Shown here: piece by piece, positions 28,482-63,884 of the stretch
Layout: the number at the start of each line of letters is the position of its first letter
How positions within the stretch are numbered: the stretch's first letter is position 1
Assembly (NCBI GenBank): GCA_023512255.1
Contig: JAILZY010000010.1
Span: forward strand, 2,246-66,245
Reading direction: 5' to 3'
Source: a bacterium
Lineage (GTDB): Bacteria; SZUA-182; DTGQ01
DNA length: 64,000 nucleotides
Notes under the pieces: model-generated
Databases searched by the model: none
What the model was told of the DNA's origin: nothing
What the model saw: the letters and a program-made list of their open reading frames with translations, nothing else
Translations under genes and position numbers: made by a program

Positions 28482-28497
28482 TGCAAAAGAAGTACCA
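28482..28497 (-). promoter_or_regulatory. Candidate sigma-54 (-24/-12) promoter for the NHL-1/cytochrome-1 module: TGGTAC-ttctt-TTGCa
   Basis: Reverse complement of 28483-28497 gives GG-N10-GC with a TTGCA -12 box, about 190 nt upstream of the NHL-1 start. One deviation from the TGGCAC consensus. Confidence 0.45.
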
Positions 28498-28755
28498 TCC
28501 ATATTTTTAAAGAAGTACCATACATCTTTTTATAGTGTTAAGGCAGATGTCATGTTAAGCCCTAGGAAGCCAATGATCATTTATTTACAAATGATATACT
28601 GTTACATTATAATACGAAAGAAAACCCAATATCAACATCCAGGTTGCGAGGTTGCCGACAAAAAGAAAAGAAAGGGGTTTGTGGCTATTAGACATATATC
28701 GGTCATTTCAACAATAGAATATTACCTGAAAATAGAAATTACCTGGCTGGGACTC

Positions 28756-30816
28756 CTAAAGCATCCCATAATGGCAATTAAAACATAATCCGCTGCCATG
28801 CTCATACACTTGGCCTTGAAAGCTTCCACCAATGGCATTATCAATAATTAAAAGTTTTCCGGCATTTAATCTTCCGCTTTGACTGATACCATCATGCCTA
28901 GTTACGGCTGAATGAACGCTGTGGCAGGACTGACAGGTGATATCTCCCTCCAGGGTATCATTTGATGTTTGCCCGCCAAACCCACCACTGAAGCCTGAGA
29001 TAACATAGCCTTGAAAATTATCGCCAAATTGAACCGATTTTTGCTTCAGAGGCCTGTTGACCGGATGGGAGGATTCGCACTCGGCAGATGCGGGTTTGCT
29101 GGTATGGCAGGCGATGCACAGGGCAGAGCCAGAATAGTCCCGGGTTGCGTTCGGCTCTCGAAGGTAAGCTGTGCGCCGATCAATAAATTTCTCGGAGGAG
29201 CGGATAGGGGGCGAGTCCTGCCGGTGGACATTGTGGCAGCTTCCGCACCAGATTCTCCCTTTCTCGACTCCGTAATCATTCTGACACTTTTTTTCCCAAC
29301 CATCGGAAACAACCTGTTTCCCATCCCCAAAAGGATTAATAATATTGATATTTTTGGAAGGCACTACATTAAACCGATGAGAGAAGTAATGGTCCTCTAC
29401 ATTATCGAGCAGCAGAGCATTTTTTTCATTGTCCGTATCTTTTGCTCCTACGATTTCGGCTCGTGAGTGGCAGCCGTAGCAGGCATCCTCGTAATCACGA
29501 CTATCCTGATCCTGCAATTTGTCAGCCCACTGAAGATTTACTGGTGCAATCCGCATGATCACATCCACCGAAGCAGAGGAATTTTCTTGGTTAGCTCGCT
29601 CATCATCTGTCTGATATAGAGCCGCAGGATCATTCGGTGATTTATGGATAGAGTGGCAGAATAGGCACTCATTTTCATTCTGGGGCGGCCCGATCGTGCG
29701 CCCGACCTGATAATGTCCGCGGCCTGGAGTGGATTCAAGATCACCGACCGCTTTATCAGAATGGCAGGCAGCACAAAAGGCCCCGGGATGAGCCGGATCG
29801 TAGTTGCTGATAATTTGCGGGTTGAGATACTTATCATTAGTGCCCTGATGAGGATCATGGCAGGATTTGCAATACAGCTCTCCCTGAGGGGAGAGTGGGC
29901 CAGATGCGGTCTTCTGATGTCCTTCGACTGTAGCCTCAGCTCCTTTCCCCATCGGGTGGTGCTCATACCGGACCAGGCAATCATCGCCATTCAGCGGAGC
30001 GTTTAGCGCCCCCTCACCCCCCCCTTGAGCTCGATGGCAGCCGTAGCAGCTAGCTGCATAAGAGTCAGCCACAGGATCGGAAAATTCGCTAACATTAGGG
30101 ACTGCTCTGAAGGGGATGCTGCTTTCAGTCTTAATGATCTTTTTCCCTCGATTGGGGGAATAATGCGGAGTATGACAGTCAAAGCAGCCATCTTTGGTTC
30201 CATGCCCCTTGGCCTTACCCTGAACCAGGGGAGCGTGGCATTGGATACAAAATTCATAATGCTTTTGTGAGGTAGTTTTGATTAAACCAGGCACTGACTC
30301 CCGCAGGTAATCGCCCCCCTCAAAGGGATCGGTATGAGGATTATGACAGCTTCCACAATAAAATCCATCTCCTCCCTCCTTAGGCCGCAGGGGAAAGGTT
30401 TCACCCCACTCTTTGCGGGTTACCGCCGGACCATTAATTAGAGCATTGGCTCCCATGGGATGATCATTACCTTCCTCAATGAATATATAATCCCTAGCTC
30501 CGAAAAGATGAGTACCATGACAGGTGCTGCACAGTCTTTTTGTTCCGGTAAACTCACCACTTGCCGCCCTAGCCCACAGAAGGTCATCAGCGGCATGGTG
30601 AGGCAGATGACAGGCTCCGCACGGATCTTCCGGTACACACCAGGCATGAGGCCCATTCAGCGCCCAGGCGAACTGAAAGCCGAAGACGACCAGCAGGAGG
30701 GAAATAATAAGGCCTATTATCCCTTTCGAAATACCTATACCGATTATCCACCGGAGAGCGATTCTCAGAAAACTACTTCGATACATCGAATACTGAAACA
30801 ACTTTTGTCTCCGCAT
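28756..30816 (-). CDS. Multiheme c-type cytochrome (14 CxxCH) with an N-terminal membrane anchor or signal
   Basis: CGACH, CSTCH, CGSCH, CIQCH, CFDCH, CYGCH, CKSCH, CAACH, CLFCH, CYGCH, CGSCH, CIACH, CQSCH, CFNCH. Hydrophobic N-terminus IIGLIISLLLVVFGFQFAWA. Alternative start MYRSS at 30786. The 5' end overlaps the 3' end of NHL-2 by 14-44 nt. Confidence 0.85.
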   Translation of the reverse strand: MRRQKLFQYSMYRSSFLRIALRWIIGIGISKGIIGLIISLLLVVFGFQFAWALNGPHAWCVPEDPCGACHLPHHAADDLLWARAASGEFTGTKRLCSTCHGTHLFGARDYIFIEEGNDHPMGANALINGPAVTRKEWGETFPLRPKEGGDGFYCGSCHNPHTDPFEGGDYLRESVPGLIKTTSQKHYEFCIQCHAPLVQGKAKGHGTKDGCFDCHTPHYSPNRGKKIIKTESSIPFRAVPNVSEFSDPVADSYAASCYGCHRAQGGGEGALNAPLNGDDCLVRYEHHPMGKGAEATVEGHQKTASGPLSPQGELYCKSCHDPHQGTNDKYLNPQIISNYDPAHPGAFCAACHSDKAVGDLESTPGRGHYQVGRTIGPPQNENECLFCHSIHKSPNDPAALYQTDDERANQENSSASVDVIMRIAPVNLQWADKLQDQDSRDYEDACYGCHSRAEIVGAKDTDNEKNALLLDNVEDHYFSHRFNVVPSKNINIINPFGDGKQVVSDGWEKKCQNDYGVEKGRIWCGSCHNVHRQDSPPIRSSEKFIDRRTAYLREPNATRDYSGSALCIACHTSKPASAECESSHPVNRPLKQKSVQFGDNFQGYVISGFSGGFGGQTSNDTLEGDITCQSCHSVHSAVTRHDGISQSGRLNAGKLLIIDNAIGGSFQGQVYEHGSGLCFNCHYGML

Positions 30817-31783
30817 TAACTACATAGATTTTATTGTTTGTCCAGGCCAGACCGAGAGGCTGGCTGAACAGCCTGGGATTGCTCGACTGGCGCATAGAGT
30901 CAAGATATTCCCCCTTCTGGTTGAATACCTGGACCGAATTTGAGATAAAATCAGAAACATAAATCCGATCTCTGGCATCAATAGCCAGGCCATAGGGTCG
31001 AATAAATTCTCCCTCTTTGGTGCCGTTTTTGCCAAAAGCATAGCGAAATTTAAAATCAGGACTAAAAGACTGGACCCTGAAATTACCCGCATCAACGACA
31101 TAAATATTTCCTCGGCTATCGAAAGCAATATGAGCCGGACCGCTCAATCCTCCGTCTCCTCCGCCGGCAGTGCCGAAGGTGGCTTTTAATTCTCCAGAGA
31201 GTGTGTAGACTCCGATCTGGTGATTGCAGGCATCAGAGATATATAGCCGATTATCGAATGGATTGTAAGCGATAAAAGGGGCACAAAGATCGCGGCCTTT
31301 CTCTGGCTGGTGAAGGGGAAATTGCCCTTTAAGTTCGCCATCTGAGCTATAAATCAAAATCTTGTCTGTGGCCAGATCCGATACGTACACCCGATCCTGC
31401 CTGTCAATCGCTATCCCTGACGGCTCGCTCAGGTTTACTCCTTTGCCTTTTCCCTTGCCCTGCTTGGTCGGCTCTTGGCCAAAAGCAAACAGTAGCCGAC
31501 CCGAAGGATCAAATACCCGAATCTCATTGGTCAGCGAGCAGACAACAAAGAGGCGACCTTTGGAATCAAGGGCCAGCGCCGTGGGCTTGCCAGATGCTGG
31601 GCCTTGAAAACCAAGCTGAATCTGCCGCTCAAGCTGATAAAAGCTTTCTTTGCCGGCAGGTTGGCCAGCAGCCAGAGCTGAGCTGCTCAAGAGGAAGAGG
31701 GGAAAAAGCAGCGTCGCCAAGACAGATGCCAGAAAACCTTTTGGATTCAAAATCGGCTGGACAGTCATTATAATAGTCATCAT
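30773..31783 (-). CDS. NHL-repeat beta-propeller protein, secreted
   Basis: Signal peptide; blades GIAIDRQDRVYVSDLATDKILIYSSDGEL, NRLYISDACNHQIGVYTLSGEL, GNIYVVDAGNFRVQSFSPD, DRIYVSDFISNSVQVFNQKGEY, NKIYVVNAETKVVSVFDV. Confidence 0.75.
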   Translation of the reverse strand: MMTIIMTVQPILNPKGFLASVLATLLFPLFLLSSSALAAGQPAGKESFYQLERQIQLGFQGPASGKPTALALDSKGRLFVVCSLTNEIRVFDPSGRLLFAFGQEPTKQGKGKGKGVNLSEPSGIAIDRQDRVYVSDLATDKILIYSSDGELKGQFPLHQPEKGRDLCAPFIAYNPFDNRLYISDACNHQIGVYTLSGELKATFGTAGGGDGGLSGPAHIAFDSRGNIYVVDAGNFRVQSFSPDFKFRYAFGKNGTKEGEFIRPYGLAIDARDRIYVSDFISNSVQVFNQKGEYLDSMRQSSNPRLFSQPLGLAWTNNKIYVVNAETKVVSVFDVSK

Positions 31784-32173: not shown

Positions 32174-33727
32174 TTAGCTTGGCTCGTCAAGGCCATATCG
32201 TTTGATTTTCTTGTGTAAACCCTGCCTGGTAATCCCAAGCAAAGAGGCTGCTTTGTTCTTATTGCCCTGGGCTTCTTGAAGCGCTTTTCGGATAAGTCTA
32301 ATTTCCAAAGCCTTAACCTGCTCAGGGAGTGAATAATCAACGGCATCTTTCTCATGATCTTGCAGACTCTTGCTGAAATTTTGCAGCTCCCGTGAGCATT
32401 TGTCAATGGTAATTCGCTCCCCCTCAGGAGTTAGCGCAACCAGATGTTCTACCTCCCGCAGCAATTGGCGAACATTGCCCGGCCATGAATACTCCTCAAA
32501 CAGCCGCAAGACTTCAGGCGCAAAGCCAGCTACCCTTTTTTTGAATCTACGGCTTACTCGATCCAGAAAGGCTAAGGCCATAGTTACAATATCCTCCCGC
32601 CGCTCCCTGAGAGGCGGAATGTGGATCTCGACTGAAAACAGACGGAAGAAAAGATCCTCCCTGAAACGCCCCAAGGCCACCTCCTGGCGCAGGTCCTTGT
32701 TGGTTGAGCTGATGATCCGCAGATTATAGCGCATTACCTTGTTGCTTCCCAGCCGACAGCCTTCCCCCTCCTGAATGGCCCGCAAGAACTTAGGCTGAAT
32801 AGCCAGAGGCATATCAGCTACCTCATCCAGAAACAGTGTTCCGCCGTCAGCCTCCTCAAATCGACCCTTGCGGCTGGTAACCGCACCGGTGAACGCCCCT
32901 TTTTCATAGCCAAAGAATTCGCTTTCCATAAGATTTTCGAGAATCGAGGCACAGTTTACAGCCACAAAGGGTTTGTCGCGGCGGTCACTGCCTTCATGGA
33001 TCATTCGAGCAATAAGCTCCTTGCCGGTCCCGTGCTCGCCGTGGATGAAGACATTGACCGGAGTTTTGCTGATCATCCGCACCTCATCCATGATATTTCT
33101 CATAATCGGGCTTTCGACAATAAAGGGTATATCCCGAAAATAATTTCTTTCGAACCACTCGACCTCGCAGTTTAACTGGCTAGAGATTTGCAGAATCTCT
33201 CGGCTTAAAAGGATGCCCTCGATAGAGGTTGCAAGGAAAGAGGCGATTTCCTGCAATTGCTCCACATCTTCTGCGCTAAATCGCCCATCTCCCTTCTTGT
33301 TTAGTACCTCGATGGCTCCGATTACACCACGGCCAGTCAGACTTCTGATCGGAGCACAGATTAGACTGTGGGTAACAAAGCCGGTCTTGGCATCAATTTC
33401 AGTATGGAAACCGTGTCGCTTGTCCAGGTCATGCTCTACAATGCATTGATCGGTAGAGATAACCTTGCCGACAACACTTTCATCTTTGGGAGGCTCAATC
33501 TTCATTCCTTCTAGACCAGTGCCGAACATCGACCAGATTGTCCCCTTTTGTGCATCAGCCACAAAAACAGTGCAGCGTTCGGCATCCATAATTTTGGGCA
33601 GAATGGCTACGTAAAATTTCAGCAGGGCCTCATAATCGCCGACTGTCCAGGATTGGGTAACCTGCTCCAGACGAAATCTAAGGTTGGCAAGTCGCTGATG
33701 AATCATTTCAGGTTCATTGGCAGCCAC
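32174..33727 (-). CDS. Sigma-54-dependent transcriptional activator (bacterial enhancer-binding protein) with an N-terminal GAF sensor domain and a C-terminal Fis-type HTH
   Basis: GAF region ([17 protein letters not shown]..., ...[24 protein letters not shown]). AAA+ sigma-54 interaction domain ([25 protein letters not shown] motif, ...LFFRL..). [24 protein letters not shown]. No REC domain. Confidence 0.85.
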
Positions 33728-34385: not shown

Positions 34386-34674
34386 GCTTAGGCCAGTTTT
34401 TTTCTAGGTATATGAGTGTAGATTGATTTGCGTAGTTTATTAGGCAAACCCAAAGACACACAGAATACAGAATGAGGAGGAGGGGAGAGTTTGGGGGATT
34501 TCAAAAAATTCCCTCTTTCCTTAAAGAGGGATCGAGAGGCAAAGCTTGAAAAAAAGCCTCTCGATCCCTTCTCCAAAAGAAGGTTTTAAGAGAAGATCTT
34601 CTGGCGAAGGAGGTGAGCTTATAGAGGGGAGAGAGAGTAAAAATTTTTCATAGTAGTAGCAAGAGGTTAGGTTT

Positions 34675-37600
34675 GTGAGGTCAAAGAGCAAAGAATTTTT
34701 TTCAGATCAGAAAGGAGTGCTAAGAATCATGTCTAAGGTAAAAGACAACTGGTGGGCCAAGTTAGTAAGCTCATCCTGTCTTGTGCTCTTTACCATAATA
34801 GCCCTTAGTGTTGGGTGTATGGGGATTTGGGTTAGCAAGACAGAGGCAGGAGGGGTAAACCTTTCGCTGAGTGGACAGGCGATTTATCCTCAGCCCGTGG
34901 ATCAGGAAGTGCCGGAAATTTACGGGACCAAGGTCGTCTGGATGCAGCAGGGGAATGATTATTATTACAAAGTATTCCTTGGCGATCTTGAGACCGGCAC
35001 CAGCAGGCAGCTTGGGAGCAGCCCGGCTGCGGAAAAGTATCCGGCCATCTGGGAGAATAAGGTTATCTGGATGGATTATCGAAGCATCATGGATGATCCA
35101 ACAGTAGAAAACAAATATGCATACATTTTCAAATACTATGATATGTATGGATATGACCTGGAGAAAAATCAGGAATTTCCCATTTGTACCAATCCAGAAT
35201 GGCAGGGATATGGAGATATCCAGAAGGATCGGGTTGTGTATGCTGATATGCGTACCGGCAGCCCGGATATCTTCCTCTATGACCTGAGAAGCAGTCAGGA
35301 ATACGCCATATGTATTCATCCCGCCTGGCAGGGAAATCCGGTCATTTATGATAATTATGTCATCTGGATGGACGAGCGCTCAGGCAATTATGATATCTAC
35401 GGCCTTGATCTAGCGACCGGTAAGGAATTTCCCATTTGCACCGCGGCTGATAACCAGGCTTATCCAGCTATCAGCGGCACAAAAGTGGTCTGGCAAGACA
35501 AAAGAAGTGGCAACGACGATATCTACCTCTATGATCTGGCCACAAAACAGGAAATCGCTATCTGTACCCATCCAGGAAAGCAGCAGGTGCCTGATATTTG
35601 CGGCAATATCATTGTCTGGCAGGATGACCGTAATGGGAATTGGGACATCTATGGTTATGATCTGACTACCTATCAGGAATTTCAGATTACTAACCAGAGC
35701 GGCGATGAGACCTTCCCTGCCATATCTGGTGATCGGATCGTCTGGGTGGATTCAAGGAGCGGCCACAAAAATATTTATGCGGCTACTTTGCCGTCTGGCT
35801 TTGCTCCACAAGCCAATAATCAGGTCAGAAATCGGGAGTCAATCACTGCTGCTAGCTCACTGGGTGACTCTATCACGGCCATGTCATTTGCTGCTAGCTC
35901 ACTGGCTAGCTCTATCGCCACCACGATTGCTCCGAATATCGAGATCTTAATACCCGAATTAATACCTGAAATCACCATACCCGCGATCACCTCTCCCATC
36001 ATCGAAGTGCCAAAAACCGGCCCCTCAATTATAGGCTACGAAAATAGCGGTTGTAAAAAAGAGATTACCTCTACCACCATCCGCGCTCCTGAGGAAGAGA
36101 AATTTACCTATAAGTATCAAGACAATATCCTTTATCTTTTTCATGAGAACGCCTCTTACAATTGCTGTATTGAGGAAATCGCCATCACTATGGAGGTGGT
36201 AGGAAATATCATCAATATTTATGAAGATGAAAGGCTTGAGGGAGGCGGCTGTCGATGTCTCTGCACCTATGATATAACCACTAAGATCGGCTGTCTTGAG
36301 CCTGGCACCTATGAGGTGAAATTCTTCAACAAGCAAACCGGCAAATTGCTCGGCGTGATCAAAGAGGTGGTTATTCCCCCGATTCCCTGTCTTCTTTCTG
36401 CCGCCGCACCGGTACAAAAATGCTGTCCACTTCCCTGCACCGATCCCATAAACCGCTGCTGTCCGTATGCCTCTGCTGTGCCAGAGCAAAGATGTGTGGT
36501 CTGTCCGGTGCCTTGGTGGCCATGTCCATGCAGCTATTTCGATGATATGGAGCAAGATACTTGGACATTCAGCCGAGGGATCAGCTCTTCTTCGTCCATC
36601 TCTACGCCGCTGCCACCTCCCCCAATTCAAGAGATTGATTATTCAACTGCCCAATACGTTTCACCGAAAAGATCAATCTGGGCCTATGTAGCCAGCTATC
36701 TTGAGACCGCGACCGATGCCAGTATTACTGGAGCAGGATACCGCACCCTTGGGGAAGGAGCAGAGCTTGCTACCGCTTCCAGCACCTCAGCATCCCTAGC
36801 GGCAGCAGCCAATGCCAGGGTAAGTGCTTCTCGGTCGTTTGAGCTTTGCGGCTGTGAGAATCTCAAGCTGAAGCTTTCTTACCAGATCCGCTACTCCATA
36901 AGCAAAATTAATCAATATCTCTATCGCCGCGTCGCGGTTGAGGTGATGGCTTATGATGCTGCTGGCAATCAGATGGGCAAGCGCACCTATGTCCTGTTTA
37001 GGAATCCTATCCAGGTATTGAGTCAGGAAGATATTGATATTGTGCTCCCTGCTCAGTCTGCATGGCAGACCCTGGCAAGATCCCTCCAAAAAGATATACC
37101 GATCAAATGGTGTGAGGCGAGAAAACTTCAGGTAATTTTAAAAGCCGAAGGATATTTCCCTGCTGGTCAGGGTGACTTTGTAGAAACATTCTGGGATGAT
37201 CTGGCCATTGAGGGGCAAAACTGTAATATCATCCTGCCGTGCTGTCCGCTGGCTCAGGCTGAGGTTGGGGCGGCAGATGCCCTGTGGTGTCGGCCCTGTC
37301 CTGTGGCTACGACGACAGCAGCCAGCCAGGCTCTGTGGTGCTGGCCCTGCCCGGTGGCTTCTGTTGATGCGGCAAGTGCAGATGCTCTGTGGTGTCGGCC
37401 ATGTCCCTATGAGATTCATATGCCAGATGGGACGATTAGGCGTTGCTGTCCTGTGGCTACGACGACAGCAGCCAACCAGGCTCTGTGGTGCTGGCCCTGC
37501 CCGATAGCGACTGGTGTTGAGGTCAATGTTCAGAGCTGGTGTTGTCCGCTGGCTAAGGCCGAGGTAGATACCCAGGTTTTGTGGTGTCGGCCCTGTCCTG

Positions 37601-40600
37601 TGGCCACTCAGCTTGATAATAACCTGATTCGCTGGTGCTGTCCGCTGGCCAAGGCTGAGGTGGATAGTCAGTCTTTGTGGTGCTGGCCCTGTCCGTATGT
37701 AGTGGAAAAGGATGGTCAGCTTACCCGCTGGTGTTGTCCTGTGGCTCAAAATGTAGACACGCAACTTTGGTGCAGGCCATGTCCTTATCCCAAGGCTACT
37801 GATAAGGAGCTTAATATATACTGCTGTCCTGTGGCTACGGCGACGGCGGCTGGCCAGGCAATGTGGTGTCGGCCTTGTCCTTTGGCTTCAGATGTAGCAG
37901 ATGAGGCACTCAAGCTTTGGTGCTGTCCGCTGGCTCAGGCTGAGGTTGGGGCGGCAGATGCCCTGTGGTGTCGGCCATGCCCTGTGGCTACGACGACGGC
38001 AGCCGGCCAGGCTCTGTGGTGCTGGCCCTGCCCGGTGGCTTCTGTTGATGCGGCAAGCGCAGATGCTCTGTGGTGTCGGCCATGTCCGGTTCCGATAACT
38101 CCGCTGCCTGACAATTGCCTAATTGGAACGGTTAAAGAAATTCAACATCATGTCTCGGTCGGACGATCTGATCTAAAGGTAGTGGATGAATCGGGAAATA
38201 TTAGGGAGATATCTGTACCGCTTACCCAGGCCGAAAATCTCAAGGTTGGCGATAAGGTTAAAGTTTGCATTGAGACGGATAAAAATGGCGAGATTATTTC
38301 AATCACCATTGAAAAGTACGATCCTAACGCACAGGTAGTGCCTCCAGCTCAGATTTGCTGTCCGCTGGCTCAGGCTGAGGTTGGGGCGGCAGATGCTCTG
38401 TGGTGTCGGCCATGCCCGATAGCTTCTGTTGATGCGGCGAGCGCAGATGCCCTGTGGTGTCGGCCATGCCCTGTGGCTACGACGACGGCAGCCGGCCAGG
38501 CTCTGTGGTGCTGGCCTTGCCCGATAGCTTCTGTTGATGCGGCGAGTGCAGATGCCCTGTGGTGTCGGCCATGTCCCTATGAGATTCATATGCCAGATGG
38601 GACGATTAGGCGCTGCTGCCCTGTGGCTACGGCGACGGCAGCCAACCAGGCTCTGTGGTGCCGGCCTTGTCCTGTGGCTTATGTTGATGCGGCGAGCGCA
38701 GATGCCCTGTGGTGTCGGCCCTGTCCTGTGGCTACGACGACGGCAGATGGCCAGGCCCTGTGGTGTCGGCCCTGTCCTGTGGCCACTCAGCTTGATAATA
38801 ACCTGATTCGCTGGTGCTGTCCGCTGGCCAAGGCTGAGGTGGATAGTCAGTCTTTGTGGTGCTGGCCCTGTCCGTATGTAGTGGAAAAGGATGGTCAGCT
38901 TACCCGCTGGTGTTGTCCTGTGGCTCAAAATGTAGACACGCAACTTTGGTGCAGGCCATGTCCTTATCCCAAGGCTACTGATAAGGAGCTTAATATATAC
39001 TGCTGTCCTGTGGCTACGGCGACGGCGGCTGGCCAGGCAATGTGGTGTCGGCCTTGTCCTTTGGCTTCAGATGTAGCAGATGAGGCACTCAAGCTTTGGT
39101 GCTGTCCGCTGGCTCAGGCTGAGGTTGGGGCGGCAGATGCTCTGTGGTGTCGGCCCTGTCCTGTGGCTACGACGACGGCAGCCGGCCAGGCTCTGTGGTG
39201 CTGGCCCTGCCCGATAGCTTCTGTTGATGCGGCAAGTACAGATGCCCTGTGGTGTCCGCCCTGCCCGGTGGCTACGACTACGGCAGCCGGCCAGGCTCTG
39301 TGGTGTCGGCCCTGCCCGGTGGCTTCTGTTGATGCGGCGAGCGCAGATGCCCTGTGGTGTCGGCCCTGCCCTGTGGCTACGACGACGGCAGCCGGCCAGG
39401 CTCTGTGGTGCCAGCCAGGAGTAGTTACCGAATGTTTAGAGGAAACCTCAGGAGCCTTGGACATTGAAGGCGCTCAGGCAGATGTGGGTGATGAGGTCAA
39501 GATCAAGATTCGGATTCAGAATGCGCCCGGTGTGGTATCTTCCTTCGGCTTTGAGGTTATCTACAGGTCGGATATTTTAGAGTATCAAGGCTTTGAGCGC
39601 GGAAATCTCGTACTTTCCTTCCCCATGATTGATGTTAGCCCAAGCGGCCCAGACAGGCTCAAGGTGGGAGGATTATCAGCGAATCCTATACCGCAGGGAG
39701 CAAGTGGTTCGGTTGTGGTGCTAAAATTCAAGGTCATAGGTGGTGTGAAAGATGAATGTTATCCCTTGAGTCTGGAAAATCTGGTAGATGATCTAGTCAA
39801 ATTCTCCAAAACTGGCGGCTGTCTATGCATCAAGGATACTGTACCACCTCAGATTACCTGCCCGGGAGATAGGGTTATCGGCCAGATAAATAGCGATGGT
39901 ACGCCTGCTGACGATCCTGAGGTAGTTGCCTTCCTCGCTGAGGCCAAAGCATGGGATGCAGTTGATGGTGAGGTTGCGGTTTCAGCCACCTTCCAATTTG
40001 ATCAGACCAGTGGAGTTACCAGCACTAGTGAGCCTGTCCCTGGAGCTGAAATAATTATAGATGCAGACGATCAAGCCAAGATATTTTCTGGCAATCCTCT
40101 TATCCTTCCTCCTGGCCAGACCACAGTAATCTTTACCGCTAGAGACAAAGCTGGCAACAGCTCTTCCTGCACAGCTACGATCACCATTCAGCCAATGGTA
40201 TGCGAGGAGGATGAGTCCGGGCAGCTCGATATTAAAGGCACGGAAGGCAGGATAGGAGAGGAAGTGAAGATTCCGATTCGGATTCAGAATGCGCCCGGTG
40301 CCATCTCTGCTCTTGGCTTTGAGGTAAGCTACAAACCCTCTGTCCTTGAGTATGTTGGGTTTGAGCGAGGAAGCCTGGCGGCCTCTTTCTCTGTCTTCGA
40401 TGTCAACCCAATTGCCTCTGGCAGGCTCATTGTAGGTGGATACTCCACCCGAGGTATCCCGCAGGGAGCAAGCGGCGATCTGCTTATCCTGAAGTTTAAG
40501 GTTAAGGATGGTATGGAAGGTGGATGCTATCCCTTGAAGCTGGATGGGCTGACGGATGATGTGGTTAACTTTACAGCCAGCCCGGGTTGCTTCTGTATCA

Positions 40601-40854
40601 AGAGCTGCAACGGCGATCAAAATGGAGATGGAGTTATTACTCCTGCTGATGCGCTCATAGTGTTCAAGTGTTACCTTGGATCAGGACCTTGCGGCGATTG
40701 CGCTGATGTTGATGGCAACGGCAGTGTTACTCCGGCTGATGCCCTGTGTCTGTTCAAGAAATACCTGGGTCAGCCTTCTTGTCTGGATAACCTTATTAAG
40801 CTTAATGCTCAAAATAAGGGAACCTTTGCCGTAAGTGGAAAATCAGACGCCTAA
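34675..40854 (+). CDS. Giant secreted multidomain protein (2059 aa): signal/anchor, PD40 (TolB-like) 6-blade beta-propeller, Cys-rich linker domain, two arrays of about 26 'WC[RW]PCP' 20-residue cysteine repeats, cohesin, HYR, cohesin, type-I dockerin
   Basis: Hydrophobic N-terminus WWAKLVSSSCLVLFTIIALSVGCMGIW. PD40 blades ...YDMYGYDL, PDIFLYDL, YDIYGLDL, DDIYLYDL, WDIYGYDL, KNIYAATL. Repeats ALWCRPCPVATTTAAGQALWCWPCPVASVDAASAD... Cohesin-like DIEGAQADVGDEVKIKIRIQNAPGVVSSFGFEVIYRSDILEYQGFERG and DIKGTEGRIGEEVKIPIRIQNAPGAISALGFEVSYKPSVLEYVGFERG. HYR-like PPQITCPGDRV...TARDKAGNSSSCTATITI. Dockerin DQNGDGVITPADALIVFK / DVDGNGSVTPADALCLFK. Confidence 0.8.
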   Translation: MRSKSKEFFSDQKGVLRIMSKVKDNWWAKLVSSSCLVLFTIIALSVGCMGIWVSKTEAGGVNLSLSGQAIYPQPVDQEVPEIYGTKVVWMQQGNDYYYKVFLGDLETGTSRQLGSSPAAEKYPAIWENKVIWMDYRSIMDDPTVENKYAYIFKYYDMYGYDLEKNQEFPICTNPEWQGYGDIQKDRVVYADMRTGSPDIFLYDLRSSQEYAICIHPAWQGNPVIYDNYVIWMDERSGNYDIYGLDLATGKEFPICTAADNQAYPAISGTKVVWQDKRSGNDDIYLYDLATKQEIAICTHPGKQQVPDICGNIIVWQDDRNGNWDIYGYDLTTYQEFQITNQSGDETFPAISGDRIVWVDSRSGHKNIYAATLPSGFAPQANNQVRNRESITAASSLGDSITAMSFAASSLASSIATTIAPNIEILIPELIPEITIPAITSPIIEVPKTGPSIIGYENSGCKKEITSTTIRAPEEEKFTYKYQDNILYLFHENASYNCCIEEIAITMEVVGNIINIYEDERLEGGGCRCLCTYDITTKIGCLEPGTYEVKFFNKQTGKLLGVIKEVVIPPIPCLLSAAAPVQKCCPLPCTDPINRCCPYASAVPEQRCVVCPVPWWPCPCSYFDDMEQDTWTFSRGISSSSSISTPLPPPPIQEIDYSTAQYVSPKRSIWAYVASYLETATDASITGAGYRTLGEGAELATASSTSASLAAAANARVSASRSFELCGCENLKLKLSYQIRYSISKINQYLYRRVAVEVMAYDAAGNQMGKRTYVLFRNPIQVLSQEDIDIVLPAQSAWQTLARSLQKDIPIKWCEARKLQVILKAEGYFPAGQGDFVETFWDDLAIEGQNCNIILPCCPLAQAEVGAADALWCRPCPVATTTAASQALWCWPCPVASVDAASADALWCRPCPYEIHMPDGTIRRCCPVATTTAANQALWCWPCPIATGVEVNVQSWCCPLAKAEVDTQVLWCRPCPVATQLDNNLIRWCCPLAKAEVDSQSLWCWPCPYVVEKDGQLTRWCCPVAQNVDTQLWCRPCPYPKATDKELNIYCCPVATATAAGQAMWCRPCPLASDVADEALKLWCCPLAQAEVGAADALWCRPCPVATTTAAGQALWCWPCPVASVDAASADALWCRPCPVPITPLPDNCLIGTVKEIQHHVSVGRSDLKVVDESGNIREISVPLTQAENLKVGDKVKVCIETDKNGEIISITIEKYDPNAQVVPPAQICCPLAQAEVGAADALWCRPCPIASVDAASADALWCRPCPVATTTAAGQALWCWPCPIASVDAASADALWCRPCPYEIHMPDGTIRRCCPVATATAANQALWCRPCPVAYVDAASADALWCRPCPVATTTADGQALWCRPCPVATQLDNNLIRWCCPLAKAEVDSQSLWCWPCPYVVEKDGQLTRWCCPVAQNVDTQLWCRPCPYPKATDKELNIYCCPVATATAAGQAMWCRPCPLASDVADEALKLWCCPLAQAEVGAADALWCRPCPVATTTAAGQALWCWPCPIASVDAASTDALWCPPCPVATTTAAGQALWCRPCPVASVDAASADALWCRPCPVATTTAAGQALWCQPGVVTECLEETSGALDIEGAQADVGDEVKIKIRIQNAPGVVSSFGFEVIYRSDILEYQGFERGNLVLSFPMIDVSPSGPDRLKVGGLSANPIPQGASGSVVVLKFKVIGGVKDECYPLSLENLVDDLVKFSKTGGCLCIKDTVPPQITCPGDRVIGQINSDGTPADDPEVVAFLAEAKAWDAVDGEVAVSATFQFDQTSGVTSTSEPVPGAEIIIDADDQAKIFSGNPLILPPGQTTVIFTARDKAGNSSSCTATITIQPMVCEEDESGQLDIKGTEGRIGEEVKIPIRIQNAPGAISALGFEVSYKPSVLEYVGFERGSLAASFSVFDVNPIASGRLIVGGYSTRGIPQGASGDLLILKFKVKDGMEGGCYPLKLDGLTDDVVNFTASPGCFCIKSCNGDQNGDGVITPADALIVFKCYLGSGPCGDCADVDGNGSVTPADALCLFKKYLGQPSCLDNLIKLNAQNKGTFAVSGKSDA
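37240..39415 (+). repeat. Coding tandem-repeat arrays (60-bp units encoding WC[RW]PCP) in two blocks (37240-38095 and 38356-39415), including a 100%-identical 361-bp duplication (37600-37960 = 38779-39139)
   Basis: Direct comparison of the sequence lines shows identical text at an offset of about 1180 bp. The shadow ORFs on the opposite strand are artefacts of this repeat. Confidence 0.9.
39440..40790 (+). other. C-terminal cohesin, HYR, cohesin and dockerin module of the giant protein (approximate domain span)
   Basis: The domain-signature sequences are listed under the giant CDS. Dockerin calcium-binding repeats lie at about 40606-40790. Confidence 0.6.
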
Positions 40855-40885
40855 AGATTACTATTAGCTCTGAAGATCAGACAGC

Positions 40886-40923
40886 GAGAGGGCGATCCCA
40901 ACAGGGGCCGCCCTCTCTTTTTT
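40886..40923 (+). terminator. Rho-independent terminator after the giant gene (gagagggcg-N14-cgccctctc-tttttt)
   Basis: 9-bp GC-rich stem and a T6 tract, 32 nt after the stop codon. Confidence 0.6.
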
Positions 40924-41067
40924 CCCCATCCACAAATTATAAAATCCATGCTCCATATTTTGACAAAAAAAGATACTTATGATAAATTTTAGCGGTAAAT
41001 TTTCAAAATCTATAATTAACAACATCAACCAATTAATTACTTTTCCAAAGAGGAAGATAGAATCGGT

Positions 41068-41472
41068 ATGATCATCCAGACAGAGGTATCTTGGCAAAAT
41101 TTTGATTTACCCTCTCTTCTGCAAAGGTTCGAGCAGAAGGAGAGCTATCTGACGGGAAGTATCATTATCCATCGGGGGAAGGTAAAATCTCCGGGCAAGA
41201 AAGTAACTCATCTCTCTTCGGTCATGCTGAAAGAGCGGCTTGAGGGATCTGGCCAACAAGAATTAGCCAAAATCGCAGATGAGGCCGCGGCGAAATTTCC
41301 TCACCTTCAGCAGATTTATATCAACCATAGATTGGGAGAGGCCAAAGTGGGCGATGATATTCTCCTGCTTATTGTTTCGGCTGCGGACCGCAGAAGCGCT
41401 TTTTCCGCTGCCCAATGGATAGTCGATGAAATAAAGAAAGAAAAGATCATTACCTTGACCGAGATAGCCTGA
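41068..41472 (+). CDS. moaE: Molybdopterin synthase catalytic subunit MoaE-like
   Basis: Colinear with E. coli MoaE (…IIHRGKVKS…, …IYINHRLGEAKVGDDILLLIVSAADRRSAFSAAQWIVDEIKKEKII versus VIHRIGELWPGDEIVFVGVTSAHRSSAFEAGQFIMDYLKTRAPFWKRE). Confidence 0.55.
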   Translation: MIIQTEVSWQNFDLPSLLQRFEQKESYLTGSIIIHRGKVKSPGKKVTHLSSVMLKERLEGSGQQELAKIADEAAAKFPHLQQIYINHRLGEAKVGDDILLLIVSAADRRSAFSAAQWIVDEIKKEKIITLTEIA

Positions 41473-41494
41473 AAAAGCGTGGAGAGATGAAGAC

Positions 41495-42430
41495 ATGGAA
41501 CAGAAAAGGGACTGTCCCAAAACCAAAATACTCATGGTGGATGATGAGCCTACGATTGTAAGCATCTACCAGCACTTATACCAAGAAAATCTGTTCCCTT
41601 GGTTTGATTCGAGAATCACCGTATCAACAGCTAATTCAGGAGATCGGGCTTTAGATCTTCTTCAGAGAGAGCGGTTTGATTTACTGGTTACTGATTTTAA
41701 CCATCCCGGGCCAAGCGGCATCGAGTTTATCGGTGCAGTCAAAAAGATATGCCCTGAGCTACCCATTATTGTCTGCTCTGGACTAAACAGCGTAGGCGCT
41801 CGGATTAAAGAGTTATTCTCTGCCGGGGTGAAGGATTTTCTCTCAAAGCCTTTTCATATCTCCGAGCTTAGTCAGGCAATTTACCGCGTTCTAATCGAGG
41901 ATAAGACAGGCTCATTCTATATAAGGCAATGTATGGCTAGCCTCTGCGGTCATATCTCTTTTCTGCTGGCACCGAAGGCTAAATTGGAATGGGGTCTGAT
42001 ACGGCTCAGCAGACAGCCGGATTCGCTCAAGATTGAAGATTGTAGTGAGGCGCTGATACTGGGGTATAAAATTTCACCTCCGCCATATTTGGCTAAGGCG
42101 GCGGAAGTTATCGGCGATTTTCCCCTAGAGCGGTTTATTTCAGCAACCCTAGAGTGTATTCAAAGGCAAGATGTGGTAGCTTTGGATTTTCCCCCTGTTC
42201 AGATCGTTAACAAAGATGACCATCAGGCCATAACAACCATGAATCTTTCTACCTTGGCTTGCATTCCCCCTCCTCCTCAATTATCAAAGATAGATTGCAT
42301 TCATCTTTTCCCTCACTCTTTTGATTGTTCGCTGCCGGCGAACTGGAGCAATATTCTGAAAGGGGTAAAAAAAGAGCTCTCTTCCTACTTTCACCCTATT
42401 TATGGCCTCACTTATGGCCTCAGCGCATAA
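41495..42430 (+). CDS. Response-regulator receiver domain protein with an uncharacterised C-terminal domain
   Basis: REC KILMVDDEPTIVSIYQ...FDLLVTDFNHPGPSGIEFIGAVKK...PIIVCSG...SKP, then about 180 aa with no recognisable domain. Confidence 0.6.
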   Translation: MEQKRDCPKTKILMVDDEPTIVSIYQHLYQENLFPWFDSRITVSTANSGDRALDLLQRERFDLLVTDFNHPGPSGIEFIGAVKKICPELPIIVCSGLNSVGARIKELFSAGVKDFLSKPFHISELSQAIYRVLIEDKTGSFYIRQCMASLCGHISFLLAPKAKLEWGLIRLSRQPDSLKIEDCSEALILGYKISPPPYLAKAAEVIGDFPLERFISATLECIQRQDVVALDFPPVQIVNKDDHQAITTMNLSTLACIPPPPQLSKIDCIHLFPHSFDCSLPANWSNILKGVKKELSSYFHPIYGLTYGLSA

Positions 42431-45400
42431 AAAAATCATGCCCGAAAAAAATTCCCCATTCCTCTTATGGTTTTCCTTACTCTTCATCTGCCTCTTCATC
42501 TTCTTTCTCCTTTGCTGTCCAGCCCAGGCAGAGAAGCAGCCTTTGGGCAATGTGCTGCTGATCACCATTGATACCCTGCGGGCAGACCACCTTGGCTGCT
42601 TTGGATATCGGGTTATTCAAACCCCTAATATTGATTCCCTGGCTAGGCAGGGAGTGCTATTTCAGCAGACCTTTACTCCGGTTCCGATTACTCTTCCCTC
42701 ACATGCTTCCATTTTTACCGGCCTCTATCCCTACCAGCACGGAGTCTTGGATAACGGCTCGTTTTCCCTGAAAAAAGAAGCTATCACCCTGGCCGAGATT
42801 CTGAAGAATAGTGGATATAAGACCGCAGCCTTTGTAGGGGCCTTTGTCCTTGATTCGATCTTTGGCCTGGATCAGGGATTTGACGATTACGATGACTATA
42901 TGCCTAAGCAGGATGACCATACGGCTAAGCAGGATAAAGTGATGGCTATTCACTTCGCCGAGCGACCGGCTAGCCAAGTAACCGAGAGAGCCATTTCCTG
43001 GCTCAGGAAGCAGCAGGTGGCAAAAGCCGCGCCTTGCCCCTTTTTCCTCTGGCTCCACTACTTTGAGCCTCATGCACCCTATGAGCCGCCTGAGCCATTT
43101 AAAAGCCGCTACAGCCACTCTGCCTATGATGGGGAAATAGCCGCGGTTGATCATTGGCTCGGTATCTTGGTGCAGGAATTGAAAAGGCTGGGGCTTTTTG
43201 ACAAGATCCTCATTGTGGTTACGGCTGATCATGGAGAGGGGCTGGGGGAGCATCAGGAGAGCACTCACGGAAACTTTCTCTACGATTCCACGCTCAGGGT
43301 ACCTCTTATTTTCAAGCTTCCGCAAAGCCGATTCTTTGGCCTTATCCCAAAGCGGATAAATTCCCTTACTAGAACTATAGATGTTATGCCGACCATTCTT
43401 GACCTGCTTGGACTCTCAGCCCATATCCCGCAAGGGATCGATGGCCAGAGTTTGCTGCCGCTCATTCAGGAGGAGAGAGCCTGGAGCCGAGGAGCCACAG
43501 GGTCGGAAGGAGGCAAAGATTTTGAAGATGTTAAGGGATTTGAAGACCTTAGGGGAAAAGATTTAAAAGGAGACAAGGGGAGAGGAGATAAAAGAGATAG
43601 GAGAGGAGATAAAAGAGACAAAAGAAATGATAGCGATAAAGGAGATGATGGCGCCGGGCGGCGATACCTTTTGTGCGAAACCTATTATCCTTTTTTTCAC
43701 TATGGATGGAGCCCTGAATTTGGTTTGCGTACAGAGGAGTGGAAATATATCGAGGCGCCAAAACCAGAGCTTTATTATCTGAAAGATGATCCGGGAGAGA
43801 GGGTTAATCTCTATGAGCCAAAGCATCCTGTGGTTTCAGAGCTTCGCCTTCGGATGGAGAGGGGGCGAGTTGAGAGGGACCGAGATTTTAGGAAAATTTC
43901 ACCCTCTGCTTCCTCCGCTCCTCCTAAACTCACTCAGTTGATGAGAGAGCAGCTTGCAAGCCTTGGTTATCTTCAGGTCAATAGCTTGTCTTCTTTCGGG
44001 AAATTGGCCAGACTGCCGGATGTCAAGGACAGGGTAGCTGTGCTTCAAGGTATTGATGAGGCAGTTTCGGCCATAAGCCAAGGTAGGTATCAGGAGGCGC
44101 TCGGGAAGCTAACCTCAATCCTTCGCTCTGATTCGGAAAATATTTCCGCGCTCCTCTATCAGGCCTGCCTATATCGCAAGCTGGGCCAGTATCCTTTGGC
44201 CATAGCCGCTTTTAGGAAAATTCTGGCCATAGATCCCACTCATATTGATATTCATAATCACTTGGGCACTATTTACCATGAGATGCACGATCCCAATCAG
44301 GCTATCCGAGAATTTCTCCAGGAGATCAAACTCCACCCCAATCATGTCGAAGCTCATTATAATCTGGCCTTAGAGTATGCTGATCAGGGGAAAATCAAAA
44401 AAGCCCTGGAAAGTGTGCTCTCGGTGCTTCGGCTAGATCAGACCTATGCCGAGGGGTATAATCTGCGGGGCAAGCTCAGGATCCGAGAGGGAAATATAGT
44501 TGGAGCAGAGGAGGATTTTCAAAAGGCGATTGCTCTCTTTCCTGAATGTGCTGATGCTCATAATAATCTTGGTGTTCTCTACGGCCAGCAGGGAAAGCTG
44601 GCTCAGGCAATCAGAGAGCTGACTGTGGCCAAAAGCTTTGATCCTCAGAACGCGGCTATTTTGGTTAACCTAGCTAATGTCTGTCTTCAGCAAAACCAAT
44701 TTAGCTTAGCTGAGGAGCATCTTCAGCAGGCGCTTGTCTTGCAGCCGGCCTCAATTGAGGCAAAAGAGGCGCTCGGCCGCGTTTTCCTTCAGGCGGGGCG
44801 CACCGAAAAGGCTAGGGAGTTGCTAGAGCAGGTAGTGAAAACCTGTCCGCATCGGGCTAAAAGCAGGCTATTGCTTGGCCAGGTTTATACAATCCAGGGT
44901 TTGGGGCCAAATGCCCGAAAAGAATTGGAAGAGGCTATTCGACTCGATCCTCAAGATGAGCAGGCCTATGTTAAGCTGGCTAATCTGCTATTTCAGCAGG
45001 GGGATGTGTCCGCGGCCCTCAGCAGATGGGAAAAGGCCATTAGCCTGAATCCCAAAAATCTTGAGGCTTACCATAACCTTGGGGTTGCCTTATACCAGCA
45101 GGGAAAGATGAGCGAGGCGGTTAAGAGCTGGGAGAGTGCTCTTCGGCTAGATCCCAATTCTGCCGCGGTACGTCTTCATCTTGGCTCGGCTAGGTTTCAG
45201 CAGGGGAAGATCCAAGCGGCTATTTCAGAGTGGAAAAAGGTGTTAGCGATTGAGCCTGGGAACTTTGAGGCCCTATCAAACCTTGGCTCGGCCTATATTA
45301 GGCAGGGAGATGTGGAAGAGGCGAAGCGATATTGGCAAAAAGCGGTAGAGATCAGACCGCAGAGTGCGGATCTACACTTCAATTTAGCTATCCTCTTTTT

Positions 45401-45536
45401 GCAGCAGGGAATGATGGCTGAAGGAGAAAGCGAACTTATCAAAGTGCTCAAGATCAATCCCCACTATCCCAAGGCCCCTGAGCTGCTGGAGAGGGCCAGA
45501 GCAGGGAGGAGGGCCAGAGGGGGGACTTGGCAGTGA
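42402..45536 (+). CDS. Membrane-anchored sulfatase-family (alkaline-phosphatase superfamily) hydrolase/transferase fused to a long C-terminal TPR array
   Basis: Sulfatase N-terminus NVLLITIDTLRADHLGCFGY...NIDSLARQGVLFQQTFTPVPITLPSHASIFTG. The nucleophile position is Thr (TLPSH) rather than the Cys/Ser of CxPxR. Lys/Asp/Arg low-complexity insert KGDKGRGDKRDRRGDKRDKRNDSDKGDDG. At least 12 TPR repeats (AHYNLALEY..., AYHNLGVALYQQGK...). Alternative start at 42438 (MPEKNS). Confidence 0.7.
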   Translation: MASLMASAHKKIMPEKNSPFLLWFSLLFICLFIFFLLCCPAQAEKQPLGNVLLITIDTLRADHLGCFGYRVIQTPNIDSLARQGVLFQQTFTPVPITLPSHASIFTGLYPYQHGVLDNGSFSLKKEAITLAEILKNSGYKTAAFVGAFVLDSIFGLDQGFDDYDDYMPKQDDHTAKQDKVMAIHFAERPASQVTERAISWLRKQQVAKAAPCPFFLWLHYFEPHAPYEPPEPFKSRYSHSAYDGEIAAVDHWLGILVQELKRLGLFDKILIVVTADHGEGLGEHQESTHGNFLYDSTLRVPLIFKLPQSRFFGLIPKRINSLTRTIDVMPTILDLLGLSAHIPQGIDGQSLLPLIQEERAWSRGATGSEGGKDFEDVKGFEDLRGKDLKGDKGRGDKRDRRGDKRDKRNDSDKGDDGAGRRYLLCETYYPFFHYGWSPEFGLRTEEWKYIEAPKPELYYLKDDPGERVNLYEPKHPVVSELRLRMERGRVERDRDFRKISPSASSAPPKLTQLMREQLASLGYLQVNSLSSFGKLARLPDVKDRVAVLQGIDEAVSAISQGRYQEALGKLTSILRSDSENISALLYQACLYRKLGQYPLAIAAFRKILAIDPTHIDIHNHLGTIYHEMHDPNQAIREFLQEIKLHPNHVEAHYNLALEYADQGKIKKALESVLSVLRLDQTYAEGYNLRGKLRIREGNIVGAEEDFQKAIALFPECADAHNNLGVLYGQQGKLAQAIRELTVAKSFDPQNAAILVNLANVCLQQNQFSLAEEHLQQALVLQPASIEAKEALGRVFLQAGRTEKARELLEQVVKTCPHRAKSRLLLGQVYTIQGLGPNARKELEEAIRLDPQDEQAYVKLANLLFQQGDVSAALSRWEKAISLNPKNLEAYHNLGVALYQQGKMSEAVKSWESALRLDPNSAAVRLHLGSARFQQGKIQAAISEWKKVLAIEPGNFEALSNLGSAYIRQGDVEEAKRYWQKAVEIRPQSADLHFNLAILFLQQGMMAEGESELIKVLKINPHYPKAPELLERARAGRRARGGTWQ

Positions 45537-46186
45537 TCTTGCTTTCCATGACCAATACCTGGGGGACCAATATCTGGGCAACCAATACCCCCAATATCTA
45601 TGTGATCACTATCTATGTAGCTATTTTGCTTTGTGTCTGCACCCTGGTTTTGTTGGCCCCTCTTTCTTTGAAAGTCAACAGTCGTGAGCATGAATATGCC
45701 GTAAGCTTAGGCTGGATATTCCAAATCAGCTCTGAGGCGCCTCAACATCCGACTTGGCTGCGGTTTTCTCTCTTTGGCTGCTCATGGATCAGGGAAATCA
45801 GGTGGCCTGCGAGGTGGGACTTGAGTCAGCTAACCCAAAGCGGGAAGGTATGGATGGGTCGTCTGATTCAGGATGGAGAGACTTTCTTGGCCGTGGCTGC
45901 CAGACTTAAAGGGGCATTTTTCAGCCTAATGCAGCTTGCTAGCCAAAGAGTAGACATCAGCCTAGATGCCTCCGATGCTATGGCCAATGCTATTCTTGGG
46001 ATTATTTTTACTCATTGGACGCTCAGGGGAGTTAGGGTAAGGGTGAATTACTTAGGAGAAAATTGGCTAGTCGGCTACTTCAGGCTCCGTCTGTGGGTAT
46101 TAATCTGGGTAGGTTTAAAATTTTTCCTTTCCCGGCCAGTTTTGAAGCTAGGGAGGGCGGTCTTATGCTCACTAGAGCTTTGGTGA
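45527..46186 (+). CDS. Hypothetical membrane protein, possibly a DUF2953/YtfI-like partner of the GerW-family gene
   Basis: N-terminal TM segment. Its position immediately upstream of a YtfJ/GerW-like gene mirrors the Bacillus ytfI-ytfJ arrangement. The family assignment is tentative. Confidence 0.4.
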   Translation: MAVILLSMTNTWGTNIWATNTPNIYVITIYVAILLCVCTLVLLAPLSLKVNSREHEYAVSLGWIFQISSEAPQHPTWLRFSLFGCSWIREIRWPARWDLSQLTQSGKVWMGRLIQDGETFLAVAARLKGAFFSLMQLASQRVDISLDASDAMANAILGIIFTHWTLRGVRVRVNYLGENWLVGYFRLRLWVLIWVGLKFFLSRPVLKLGRAVLCSLELW

Positions 46187-46405
46187 AGAGGCCAGAAAAG
46201 AACCAGAAAAGAATATGAGGAGGCTAGAAAAAATGGTTTTTTCGCTAAGTGCGAGAGCATATCCCAATTATCCAATCAATTTTAGGGGTGTTCAATCAAT
46301 TGTAGGGGCGGCCCTTGTGTTCGCCCAAAGTGAGTATTTTTCAGCGATAAAACCAGAGAATAATAGAGAACCAAAGAATAATATAGGGGGGATAAAAAGA
46401 TAGAT

Positions 46406-46783
46406 ATGGAAAATCAGACTGTTGAGACGCTGTCCCTTTTATTGCAGGAGTTTCAAAAATATGGAGCTGCCGATAGTGTGATTGGCAAGGAGCTGCATAT
46501 CGGAGAGGTAACCATTGTGCCGATCAGCAAGCTTAGCCTAGGAGTTGGGGCAGGGGCAAGCACAAGCAGTAAAAAGGGAGAGGAGAAGGGGGGAGGATGT
46601 GGGGGCGGGCTTAAAGTGGAGCCGATAGCTTTTTTGGTGGTTCAAAAGGAGCGGGTTTCTCTGCTTGGTTTGGGAAAGAAAGGTCCGCTTGATGCGCTCT
46701 CTGAGCAAATACCGGATTTGATTGACAAATGGATAGGGAAAAGAGCTTCTCCCGCGCCGGCTGACAGAGAGAAGGAAGGGTAA
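46406..46783 (+). CDS. GerW/YtfJ-family protein
   Basis: SLLLQEFQKYGAADSVIGKELHIGEVTIVPISKLSLGVGAGAS...GGGGLKVEPIAFLVVQKERVSLLGL resembles the GerW/YtfJ fold signature. Confidence 0.55.
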   Translation: MENQTVETLSLLLQEFQKYGAADSVIGKELHIGEVTIVPISKLSLGVGAGASTSSKKGEEKGGGCGGGLKVEPIAFLVVQKERVSLLGLGKKGPLDALSEQIPDLIDKWIGKRASPAPADREKEG

Positions 46784-63880: not shown

Positions 63881-63884
63881 ATAA

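Follow-up and report, generated by a model that had tools for sequence, protein, structure and literature searches.

Two identical 382-bp tracts within paralogous WCxPCP arrays of a predicted modular surface protein gene from an uncultivated bacterium

Contig JAILZY010000010.1 (NCBI GenBank assembly GCA_023512255.1; GTDB lineage Bacteria; SZUA-182; DTGQ01) was analyzed over a stretch of 64,000 nucleotides (nt), positions 2,246 to 66,245 of the forward strand, which is referred to below as the window and whose first letter is position 1. It carries a gene for a modular, presumably surface-located protein of about 2041 amino acids (aa), in which two arrays of a cysteine- and proline-rich WCxPCP repeat, array A and array B, lie downstream of a domain named X and on either side of a domain named S. 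The two arrays share a tract of 382 bp without a single difference. This perfect tract is the core of an older paralogy of ~830 bp and 92% identity between the two whole arrays, and we suggest that it probably results from recent gene conversion or unequal recombination between them.

The maximal exact repeat covers positions 37580-37961 and 38759-39140. An earlier note on this DNA, made from the letters of the window, had described the segments 37600-37960 and 38779-39139 as identical at every base. All 361 of these 361 bases do match, but the exact repeat is in fact longer, and the offset between the copies is 1179 bp instead of the 1180 bp given there. As 1179 bp corresponds to 393 codons, and both copies are located inside one open reading frame (ORF; 34675/34729-40854, plus strand), the tract is intragenic and in frame, as had been claimed. 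Past the core there are three mismatches (37962 and two just downstream), and near-identity continues to about 38036/39215, which gives a young tract of ~457 bp with 3 differences. Sequence identity at the offset of 1179 bp is ~100% over ~37561 to ~38100 (~540 bp) and at background level (~25%) elsewhere in the region of 36.0-39.5 kb. The core occurs exactly twice in the window, no third copy having been found within these 64 kb.

The arrays are built of canonical units of ~32 aa (CCP-x10-12-[LM]WCxPCP-x10-13) and of simpler units of 17-18 aa (VATTTAAGQALWCWPCP / VASVDAASADALWCRPCP), which make double units of 105 nt. Unit lengths are 51, 54, 63, 90, 96 and 102 nt, every one a multiple of three, and the protein has about 40 CxxC/CC motifs. 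The paralogous block (Table 1) shows 92.3% identity over 832 columns, gaps included, and spans nearly the whole of array A. Distinctive linkers, i.e. YEIHMPDGTIRR, VATQLDNNLIRW, YVVEKDGQLTRW, YPKATDKELNIY and LASDVADEALKLW, follow in the same order in A and B. The earlier note put the identity of the flanking units at 85-95%, which holds roughly, as the unit pairs that flank the core are 85-100% identical (a4:b5, 88/96; a9:b11, 99/102; a10:b12, 51/51 bases). It does not hold for the unit directly 5' of the core, where the arrays are non-homologous: A has IATGVEVNVQSWCCPLAKAEVDTQVLWCRPCP (a5) and B has two simple units (b6 and b7). On its left side the core begins precisely with the first of the conserved LWCRPCP codons. 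Homologous units are separated by an offset that shifts along the arrays from 1116 through 1170 to 1179.

The differences between A and B are strongly non-uniform in their distribution. In an aligned block of 867 columns with 90 differences, none of 20,000 shuffles produced an identical run longer than 120 columns, the observed run being 382. The analytic probability of such a run is ~6e-17, or ~4e-9 when the replaced, non-homologous segment is left out, and the identity is thus far beyond chance.

The age of the tract can be judged against a sister strain, represented by two contigs of the Joint Genome Institute (metagenomes Ga0123519 and Ga0078972), L005 (the end of a 15.9-kb contig) and L006 (the end of a 138.9-kb contig), with ~97% nucleotide identity to the window in the flanking genes. 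The two contigs are 100% identical over an overlap of 1404 nt and, when joined, give an intact orthologue composed of X, array C (13 units), S, array D (4 units) and the cohesins. The sister strain has a single core copy, which differs from the window core at 16 of 382 sites. These differences fall in 12 synonymous and 3 non-synonymous codons, a pattern which indicates purifying selection on the protein that the core encodes, while its synonymous sites are free to vary. The absence of differences between the two window copies therefore reflects recency and not constraint, and with a Poisson 95% bound of 3 for 0 observed differences the event would be younger than about 1/5 of the inter-strain divergence. 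As the window copies are identical and the sister copy has diverged, the former were homogenized or copied after the strains split. The statement of the earlier note that the event is very recent agrees well with these counts.

The structure of the second array also differs between the strains as assembled. L005 positions 1189-1646 match window 37960-38417 and positions 1619-8014 match window 39239-45574. In a comparison of units, b1, b14, b15 and b16 correspond to d1, d2, d3 and d4, respectively, and array B consists, relative to the sister, of d1, an additional 849 nt and d2-d4. The breakpoint of the 849-nt segment is ambiguous within a shared ADALWCRPCP motif of ~28 nt. The assembled gene of the window exceeds that of the sister by 786 nt (262 codons). 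In the sister, the period from array start to array start (c1 to d1) is 1179 bp.

In array B and in sister array C alike, two simple units, among them the distinctive VATTTADGQALWCRPCP, have taken the place of a5, which is a derived state. Array A keeps the ancestral a5, which is present also in three relatives described below (L001, L003 and L007). It follows that two array types, either paralogues or alleles, co-existed before the strains split. The simple units cluster by genome: SVDAAS/TTTAAG occur all through A and B, and SAEAAS/TATAAN all through C and D. Simple units that are more alike within than between genomes are a signature of ongoing intragenic homogenization, and the core behaves in the same way, its within-genome copies (0/382) being more alike than its between-strain copies (16/382), which is the pattern of concerted evolution.

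Based on these observations, we hypothesize that the 382-bp tract was made identical very recently by homologous recombination between the arrays. This might have occurred by non-reciprocal gene conversion between older paralogues, or by recent copying of an array segment of ~850 bp into a short second array, the generic flanks of which were then scrambled. The junctions would lie in conserved WCxPCP codons, the left one at LWCRPCP. A scenario of few steps would start from an ancestor of the type X-A-S-B°-S-D. Deletions between direct repeats would then have removed different parts in the two lineages, and gene conversion would have homogenized the window core after that. The outcome would be concerted evolution within the gene, together with an in-frame change in length of a Cys/Pro-rich extracellular segment between strains.

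The repeat number had been proposed earlier as a candidate for phase or length variation. Length does differ between the strains as assembled (by the 849 bp in B). An on/off phase is unsupported: the frame is kept, since three divides the length of every unit as well as the 1179-bp offset, and variation would therefore concern the length of the protein and not on/off switching; the position of the repeat far inside the ORF does not fit a phase-variable contingency locus either. Direct repeats of 382 bp are long enough for RecA-dependent deletion. A deletion from core to core would take out 1179 bp (393 codons), including domain S, and would keep the reading frame. If the structure is real, members of the population are expected to differ in the length of the locus, and one of the alleles would be an in-frame deletion of 1179 bp. 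The tract would then represent intragenic gene conversion or unequal recombination caught very early, in a surface protein whose bearer is an uncultivated environmental bacterium.

Several points weigh against this interpretation. The two-copy structure and its perfect identity depend solely on assembled sequence, and an exact look-up of the ~2041-aa protein (start 34729) in a public gene collection did not find it, which leaves the structure without an independent assembly. The only same-strain contig, the 8970-nt Logan contig L009 (SRR15214128), was retrieved by look-up of the downstream response regulator; it comes from a fragmented public assembly and ends inside the gene at 40719, before the arrays are reached and at a site which is unrepeated in the window. 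Moreover, B splits cleanly into d1, a C-type array and d2-d4 relative to the sister, as a serial path through an assembly graph via two alleles would give, and the shorter structure of the sister could itself be a collapsed assembly. An assembly artefact might thus have arisen in two ways. Either an allele X-A-S-D and a sister-like allele X-C'-S-D were threaded in series via shared graph nodes (the start-of-array unit, the core and the simple units), and a C-type allele directly after domain X does exist in nature, in L005/L006; or two real copies that differed at a few sites were made identical by the removal of a graph bubble. The locus is also prone to assembly problems, as the earlier note had anticipated: a gap (L001) or a contig end (L002, L003, L005 and L006) lies inside the gene in 5 of 5 assemblies of relatives, although only the contigs L002 and L003 end within a repeat array. 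Nevertheless, B carries simple units of the window type and not of the sister type, so a second allele would have to come from an extremely close strain with a very different array structure. Over window 40719-49688, L009 matches at 100% identity, and no trace of a second strain is seen there. The assembler kept the 3-8% of differences between the flanks of A and B and did not collapse them, and genuine multi-array paralogy is the norm in the family. The multi-array genes of L003 and L004 indicate that duplication of whole arrays is recurrent and real in this gene family, and the array copies of the relatives have diverged and therefore cannot be strain chimeras. Taken together, we regard an artefact as a serious rival, although the less likely one, and the two-copy structure as reasonably likely to be real.

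The interpretation given in the earlier note, a very recent in-frame expansion by six repeat units and a spacer, if taken as a fresh tandem duplication of a 1179-bp unit still free of divergence, accounts for the in-frame offset of 1179 bp and for the perfect tract, and the sister period from c1 to d1 has the same length. Such an event would however leave two copies of 1179 bp in register, and the similarity at this offset extends over only ~540 bp. Domain S, the supposed spacer, is single-copy, units of different kinds (a5 versus b6 and b7) stand 5' of the core, and the drift of the unit offset is not that of a single unit copied once. A simple tandem segmental duplication is ruled out by the single-copy S and the lack of register outside the core, and duplication of the 1179-bp unit in general seems very unlikely. 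Less credible still is the idea that identity is kept by selection at the nucleotide or RNA level, or that the tract is a mobile insertion present twice. Nothing but the perfect identity speaks for either, and this is not specific. Twelve of the 15 codons that differ from the sister are synonymous changes, no Rfam family was found in the window, and the predicted folding of the stretch at the core start is no better than that of shuffles. The tract encodes protein in frame, distant orthologues keep its units in the same order, and the window has no further copy of it. Nucleotide-level constraint and a mobile element were both dismissed on the basis of the synonymous changes, the Rfam result and the copy number. 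Recombination between the paralogous arrays A and B is the explanation that we favor.

The features of the gene are listed in Table 1. The mechanical ORF begins at the GTG at 34675, whereas the ATG at 34729 agrees with the N-termini of all homologues. The order of modules is as follows: N-terminal hydrophobic anchor or signal, beta-propeller, Cys-containing domain, degenerate Cys stretch, X, A, S, B and the C-terminal modules.

Table 1. Coordinates (window positions) of the repeat gene, its modules and the repeated segments
Feature	Position	Strand	Basis
Gene for ~2041-aa modular surface protein (predicted)	34729..40854	+	ORF list, translation, start-codon context, homologue N-termini
Seven-bladed beta-propeller, after hydrophobic anchor/signal	34880..35860 (approximate)	+	NCBIfam TIGR04275 beta_prop_Msarc
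Domain X, ~240 aa, single copy in window	36520..37239	+	Homologous domains in relatives
WCxPCP array A, 11 units (a1-a11), 849 nt	37240..38088	+	Motif map, unit table
Array-A side of paralogous block	37273..38090	+	Self-blastn, MAFFT alignment
Core copy 1 of 382-bp repeat	37580..37961	+	Last 20 nt of a5, whole a6-a8, first 80 nt of a9
Domain S, 89 aa ('spacer' of the earlier note)	38089..38355	+	AlphaFold2, Foldseek
WCxPCP array B, 16 units (b1-b16), 1065 nt	38356..39420	+	Motif map, unit table
849-nt segment b2-b13, including core copy 2, without counterpart in sister array D (L005)	38419..39267	+	
Array-B side of paralogous block	38443..39269	+	Self-blastn, MAFFT alignment
Core copy 2 of 382-bp repeat	38759..39140	+	End of b7, whole b8-b10, first 80 nt of b11
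Cohesin - HYR - cohesin - dockerin modules	39421..40851	+	Pfam

The propeller matches TIGR04275 with an E value of 2.5e-81 in 7 stretches and forms at the same time a repeat family with a period of 126 nt (D5). At the C-terminus, the Pfam matches to Cohesin (E 6.4e-21, 75.5 bits against a cut-off of 24.1, 2 stretches), Dockerin_1 (E 1.1e-6, 29.2 bits against 22.9) and HYR (E 7.8e-5) all pass the curated cut-offs, and by the Pfam gathering thresholds the gene thus encodes a cohesin-dockerin protein. Together with the N-terminal hydrophobic segment, these modules may point to export or a surface location. Domain X has no match to a Pfam family. A degenerate Cys/Pro stretch, CCPLPCTDPINRCCPYASAVPEQRCVVCPVPWWPCPC, is located 5' of X at 36421-36520, where L002 and L003 have a full first array, and is probably the remnant of a lost array.

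Domain S was treated as a spacer in the earlier note. In an AlphaFold2 model of the arrays and S, built on a shallow alignment of 5 rows, it appears as a five-stranded barrel of ~75 aa (predicted local distance difference test, pLDDT, 78-87), and this confident modelling indicates that the supposed spacer is a folded domain. Its top Foldseek matches, which are weak (E ~6e-3), are the OB folds of DUF2500, Mop/ModE and eIF1A, and according to the model we describe S as an OB-like beta-barrel. It is conserved in L001, L003, L004 (in two copies) and L007. The arrays themselves were left unmodelled (pLDDT ~30), and no structural conclusion on the WCxPCP repeat is drawn from them.

The G+C content over the arrays is 0.55-0.66, which can be put down to their content of Cys, Pro, Ala and Gly codons, as this would give such values. 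Two minus-strand ORFs overlie the arrays (37138-37764, 208 aa, and 38299-38943, 214 aa); they are most likely shadow ORFs of the biased codon content of the repeats, and the second partly duplicates the first because of the underlying repeat. A terminator-like hairpin is present downstream of the gene (40903-40916), and a hairpin-forming intergenic sequence upstream of it (~34490-34600). Scans of the window for promoters and terminators gave nothing specific, and no tRNA was found in it.

As for the function of the arrays, their abundance of Cys and Pro, together with the signals for export and the cohesin and dockerin modules at the C-terminus, suggests a disulfide- or metal-cross-linked extracellular stalk, or a metal-binding segment, whose length might set the reach of the protein. 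A bolder reading, which we consider improbable, is that the arrays constitute an undescribed extracellular module, cross-linked by metal or disulfides and possibly redox-active, and that intragenic recombination actively adjusts how many arrays there are and how long they become. The 382-bp tract, found in a small uncultivated lineage and in a conserved neighborhood with multihaem cytochromes, would then be a snapshot of this tuning process.

The WCxPCP repeats form a rare family that is as yet undescribed. The arrays are not covered by any model of Pfam or NCBIfam, the sole match, to DUF2290, being sub-threshold. A word-indexed search of 5.8 billion proteins returned 3 partial homologues and missed the sister strain, which was found only by contig scans. 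An exhaustive phmmer search of 1.84 billion representative proteins gave 8 matches, 5 of which are true relatives; the remaining three (P0007-P0009) are low-complexity, eukaryote-like proteins and were rejected.

As assembled, the proteins of the relatives span ~1950 to 3600 aa. L001, the NCBI metagenome-assembled genome (MAG) GCA_040752695.1, is syntenic with the window, and its upstream genes include those for cytochrome, NHL propeller and sigma-54 activator proteins; a scaffold gap of 100 N (L001 9901-10000) lies inside its S domain, and the gene is annotated as two proteins, one of them 'partial'. L007, also syntenic, encodes an orthologue of 1952 aa in which X is followed by one long canonical array that has a single core, then by S, a short array and cohesins. 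In L003, two X domains are accompanied by at least three arrays. The 3600-aa homologue of L004 (6155-16957) has about six arrays, two X and two S domains, and a tandem array pair (12116-12837 versus 13016-13734) with 84% identity over 734 columns. At its C-terminus, CDGxDNDCDG 'MopE-like' metal-binding motifs take the place of the cohesin and dockerin modules. The paralogous arrays of the other relatives have diverged to 72-84% identity or further, and the longest exact intragenic repeat is 83 nt in L001 and 67 nt in L004, versus 382 nt in the window.

The first arrays of two relatives are interrupted by in-frame stops, at homologous places ~20 codons apart. In L003 a TGA (3935-3937) replaces the second Cys of WCRPCP (WCRP*P), and in L002 a TAG (2321-2323) follows CCPIV; the reading frame continues past the stops for more than 1100 codons in L003 and more than 400 in L002. 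They may represent nonsense mutation, sequencing error or recoding; at these two sites a search for signs of selenocysteine insertion or readthrough revealed neither a SECIS-like fold (z ~0) nor an Rfam match. As short-read assemblies handle the locus poorly, public MAG gene models of the family, with their gaps, truncations and in-frame stops, need caution.

The phenomenon itself is well known, and the gene is a new example of concerted evolution of surface-protein repeats. Its less ordinary part is the carrier, a repeat family without a Pfam or NCBIfam profile and with about five true relatives among the representative proteins searched. Identical intragenic repeats are known from surface proteins of Gram-positive bacteria, such as the alpha C/Rib/Alp proteins of group B streptococci and the G5-E repeats of SasG/Aap, where homologous recombination among the repeats is accepted as the mechanism. 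As in those proteins, the repeats described here are long, coding and in frame, their copies are closer within than between strains, and the length, as assembled, differs between strains. However, the copies in the window are segments of two composite arrays split by a folded domain, there are just two of them, and they are not adjacent tandem units. In addition, the Cys/Pro-rich unit is unrelated to those families, and its carrier is an uncultivated environmental bacterium that faces no host immune system. Variable coding repeats and bacterial antigen variation are covered by general reviews (PMC3899988, PMC4534519).

Intragenic homogenization has been described in spidroins (PMC3933166), and ectopic recombination among the yeast FLO adhesin genes (PMC3512402). 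The window gene would resemble them in the concerted evolution of repeat modules in structural or surface genes and in mosaic alleles formed by recombination. Those genes are eukaryotic and encode different proteins, so the likeness is one of process only. Cohesin/dockerin proteins comprise the cellulosome type as well as non-cellulosomal ones of anaerobes, discussed for the consortia that anaerobic methanotrophic archaea (ANME) form (PMC9012536, PMC10553843). Like such scaffolds, the protein described here has two Pfam cohesins and one type-I dockerin at its C-terminus. It differs in having no carbohydrate-active module, and known scaffoldins lack the TIGR04275 propeller, domain X, the OB-like domain and the WCxPCP arrays. 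The hinge of immunoglobulin G3 contains repeated CPRCP-containing segments, the number of which varies between alleles. By analogy only, it shares with the arrays a repeated C-x-x-C-P motif, a Pro-rich spacer and a length that, as assembled, varies by segment duplication; the two are not homologous, and disulfide pairing or dimerization of the WCxPCP array would be hypothetical.

The gene is preceded by a GAF/sigma-54 activator, two multihaem cytochromes and two NHL propellers, and followed by genes for MoaE, the response regulator mentioned above and a sulfatase-TPR protein. Directly 5' of the repeat gene lies the cytochrome/NHL block, for which L001 and L007 show synteny. In the window, cytochromes (Paired_CXXCH, MtrC-like) alternate with the NHL propeller proteins over 24695-31783 and 32174-33727 (both on the minus strand). 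An exact look-up of the upstream NHL protein did not find it.

A dispersed intergenic palindromic repeat, GGGGAAAACCCTTTTTCAAAAGGGTTTTCCCC with its relatives, which resembles repetitive extragenic palindromes (REP) or miniature inverted-repeat transposable elements (MITE), is located at 49664-49730. Further copies of this type occur at ~7990-8027, 8090, 10825-10839, 10921, 2020 and 63884-63928, and contig L009 ends in one of them. The window also contains genes for an archaeal-type S-adenosylmethionine synthetase (PF01941; 11024-12268) and a short (590-aa) IF-2-like GTPase (12382-14154), and bacterial sigma-54 activators are encoded in it as well. These genes and the Methanosarcina-type propeller repeat hint at an unusual lineage or at transferred genes.

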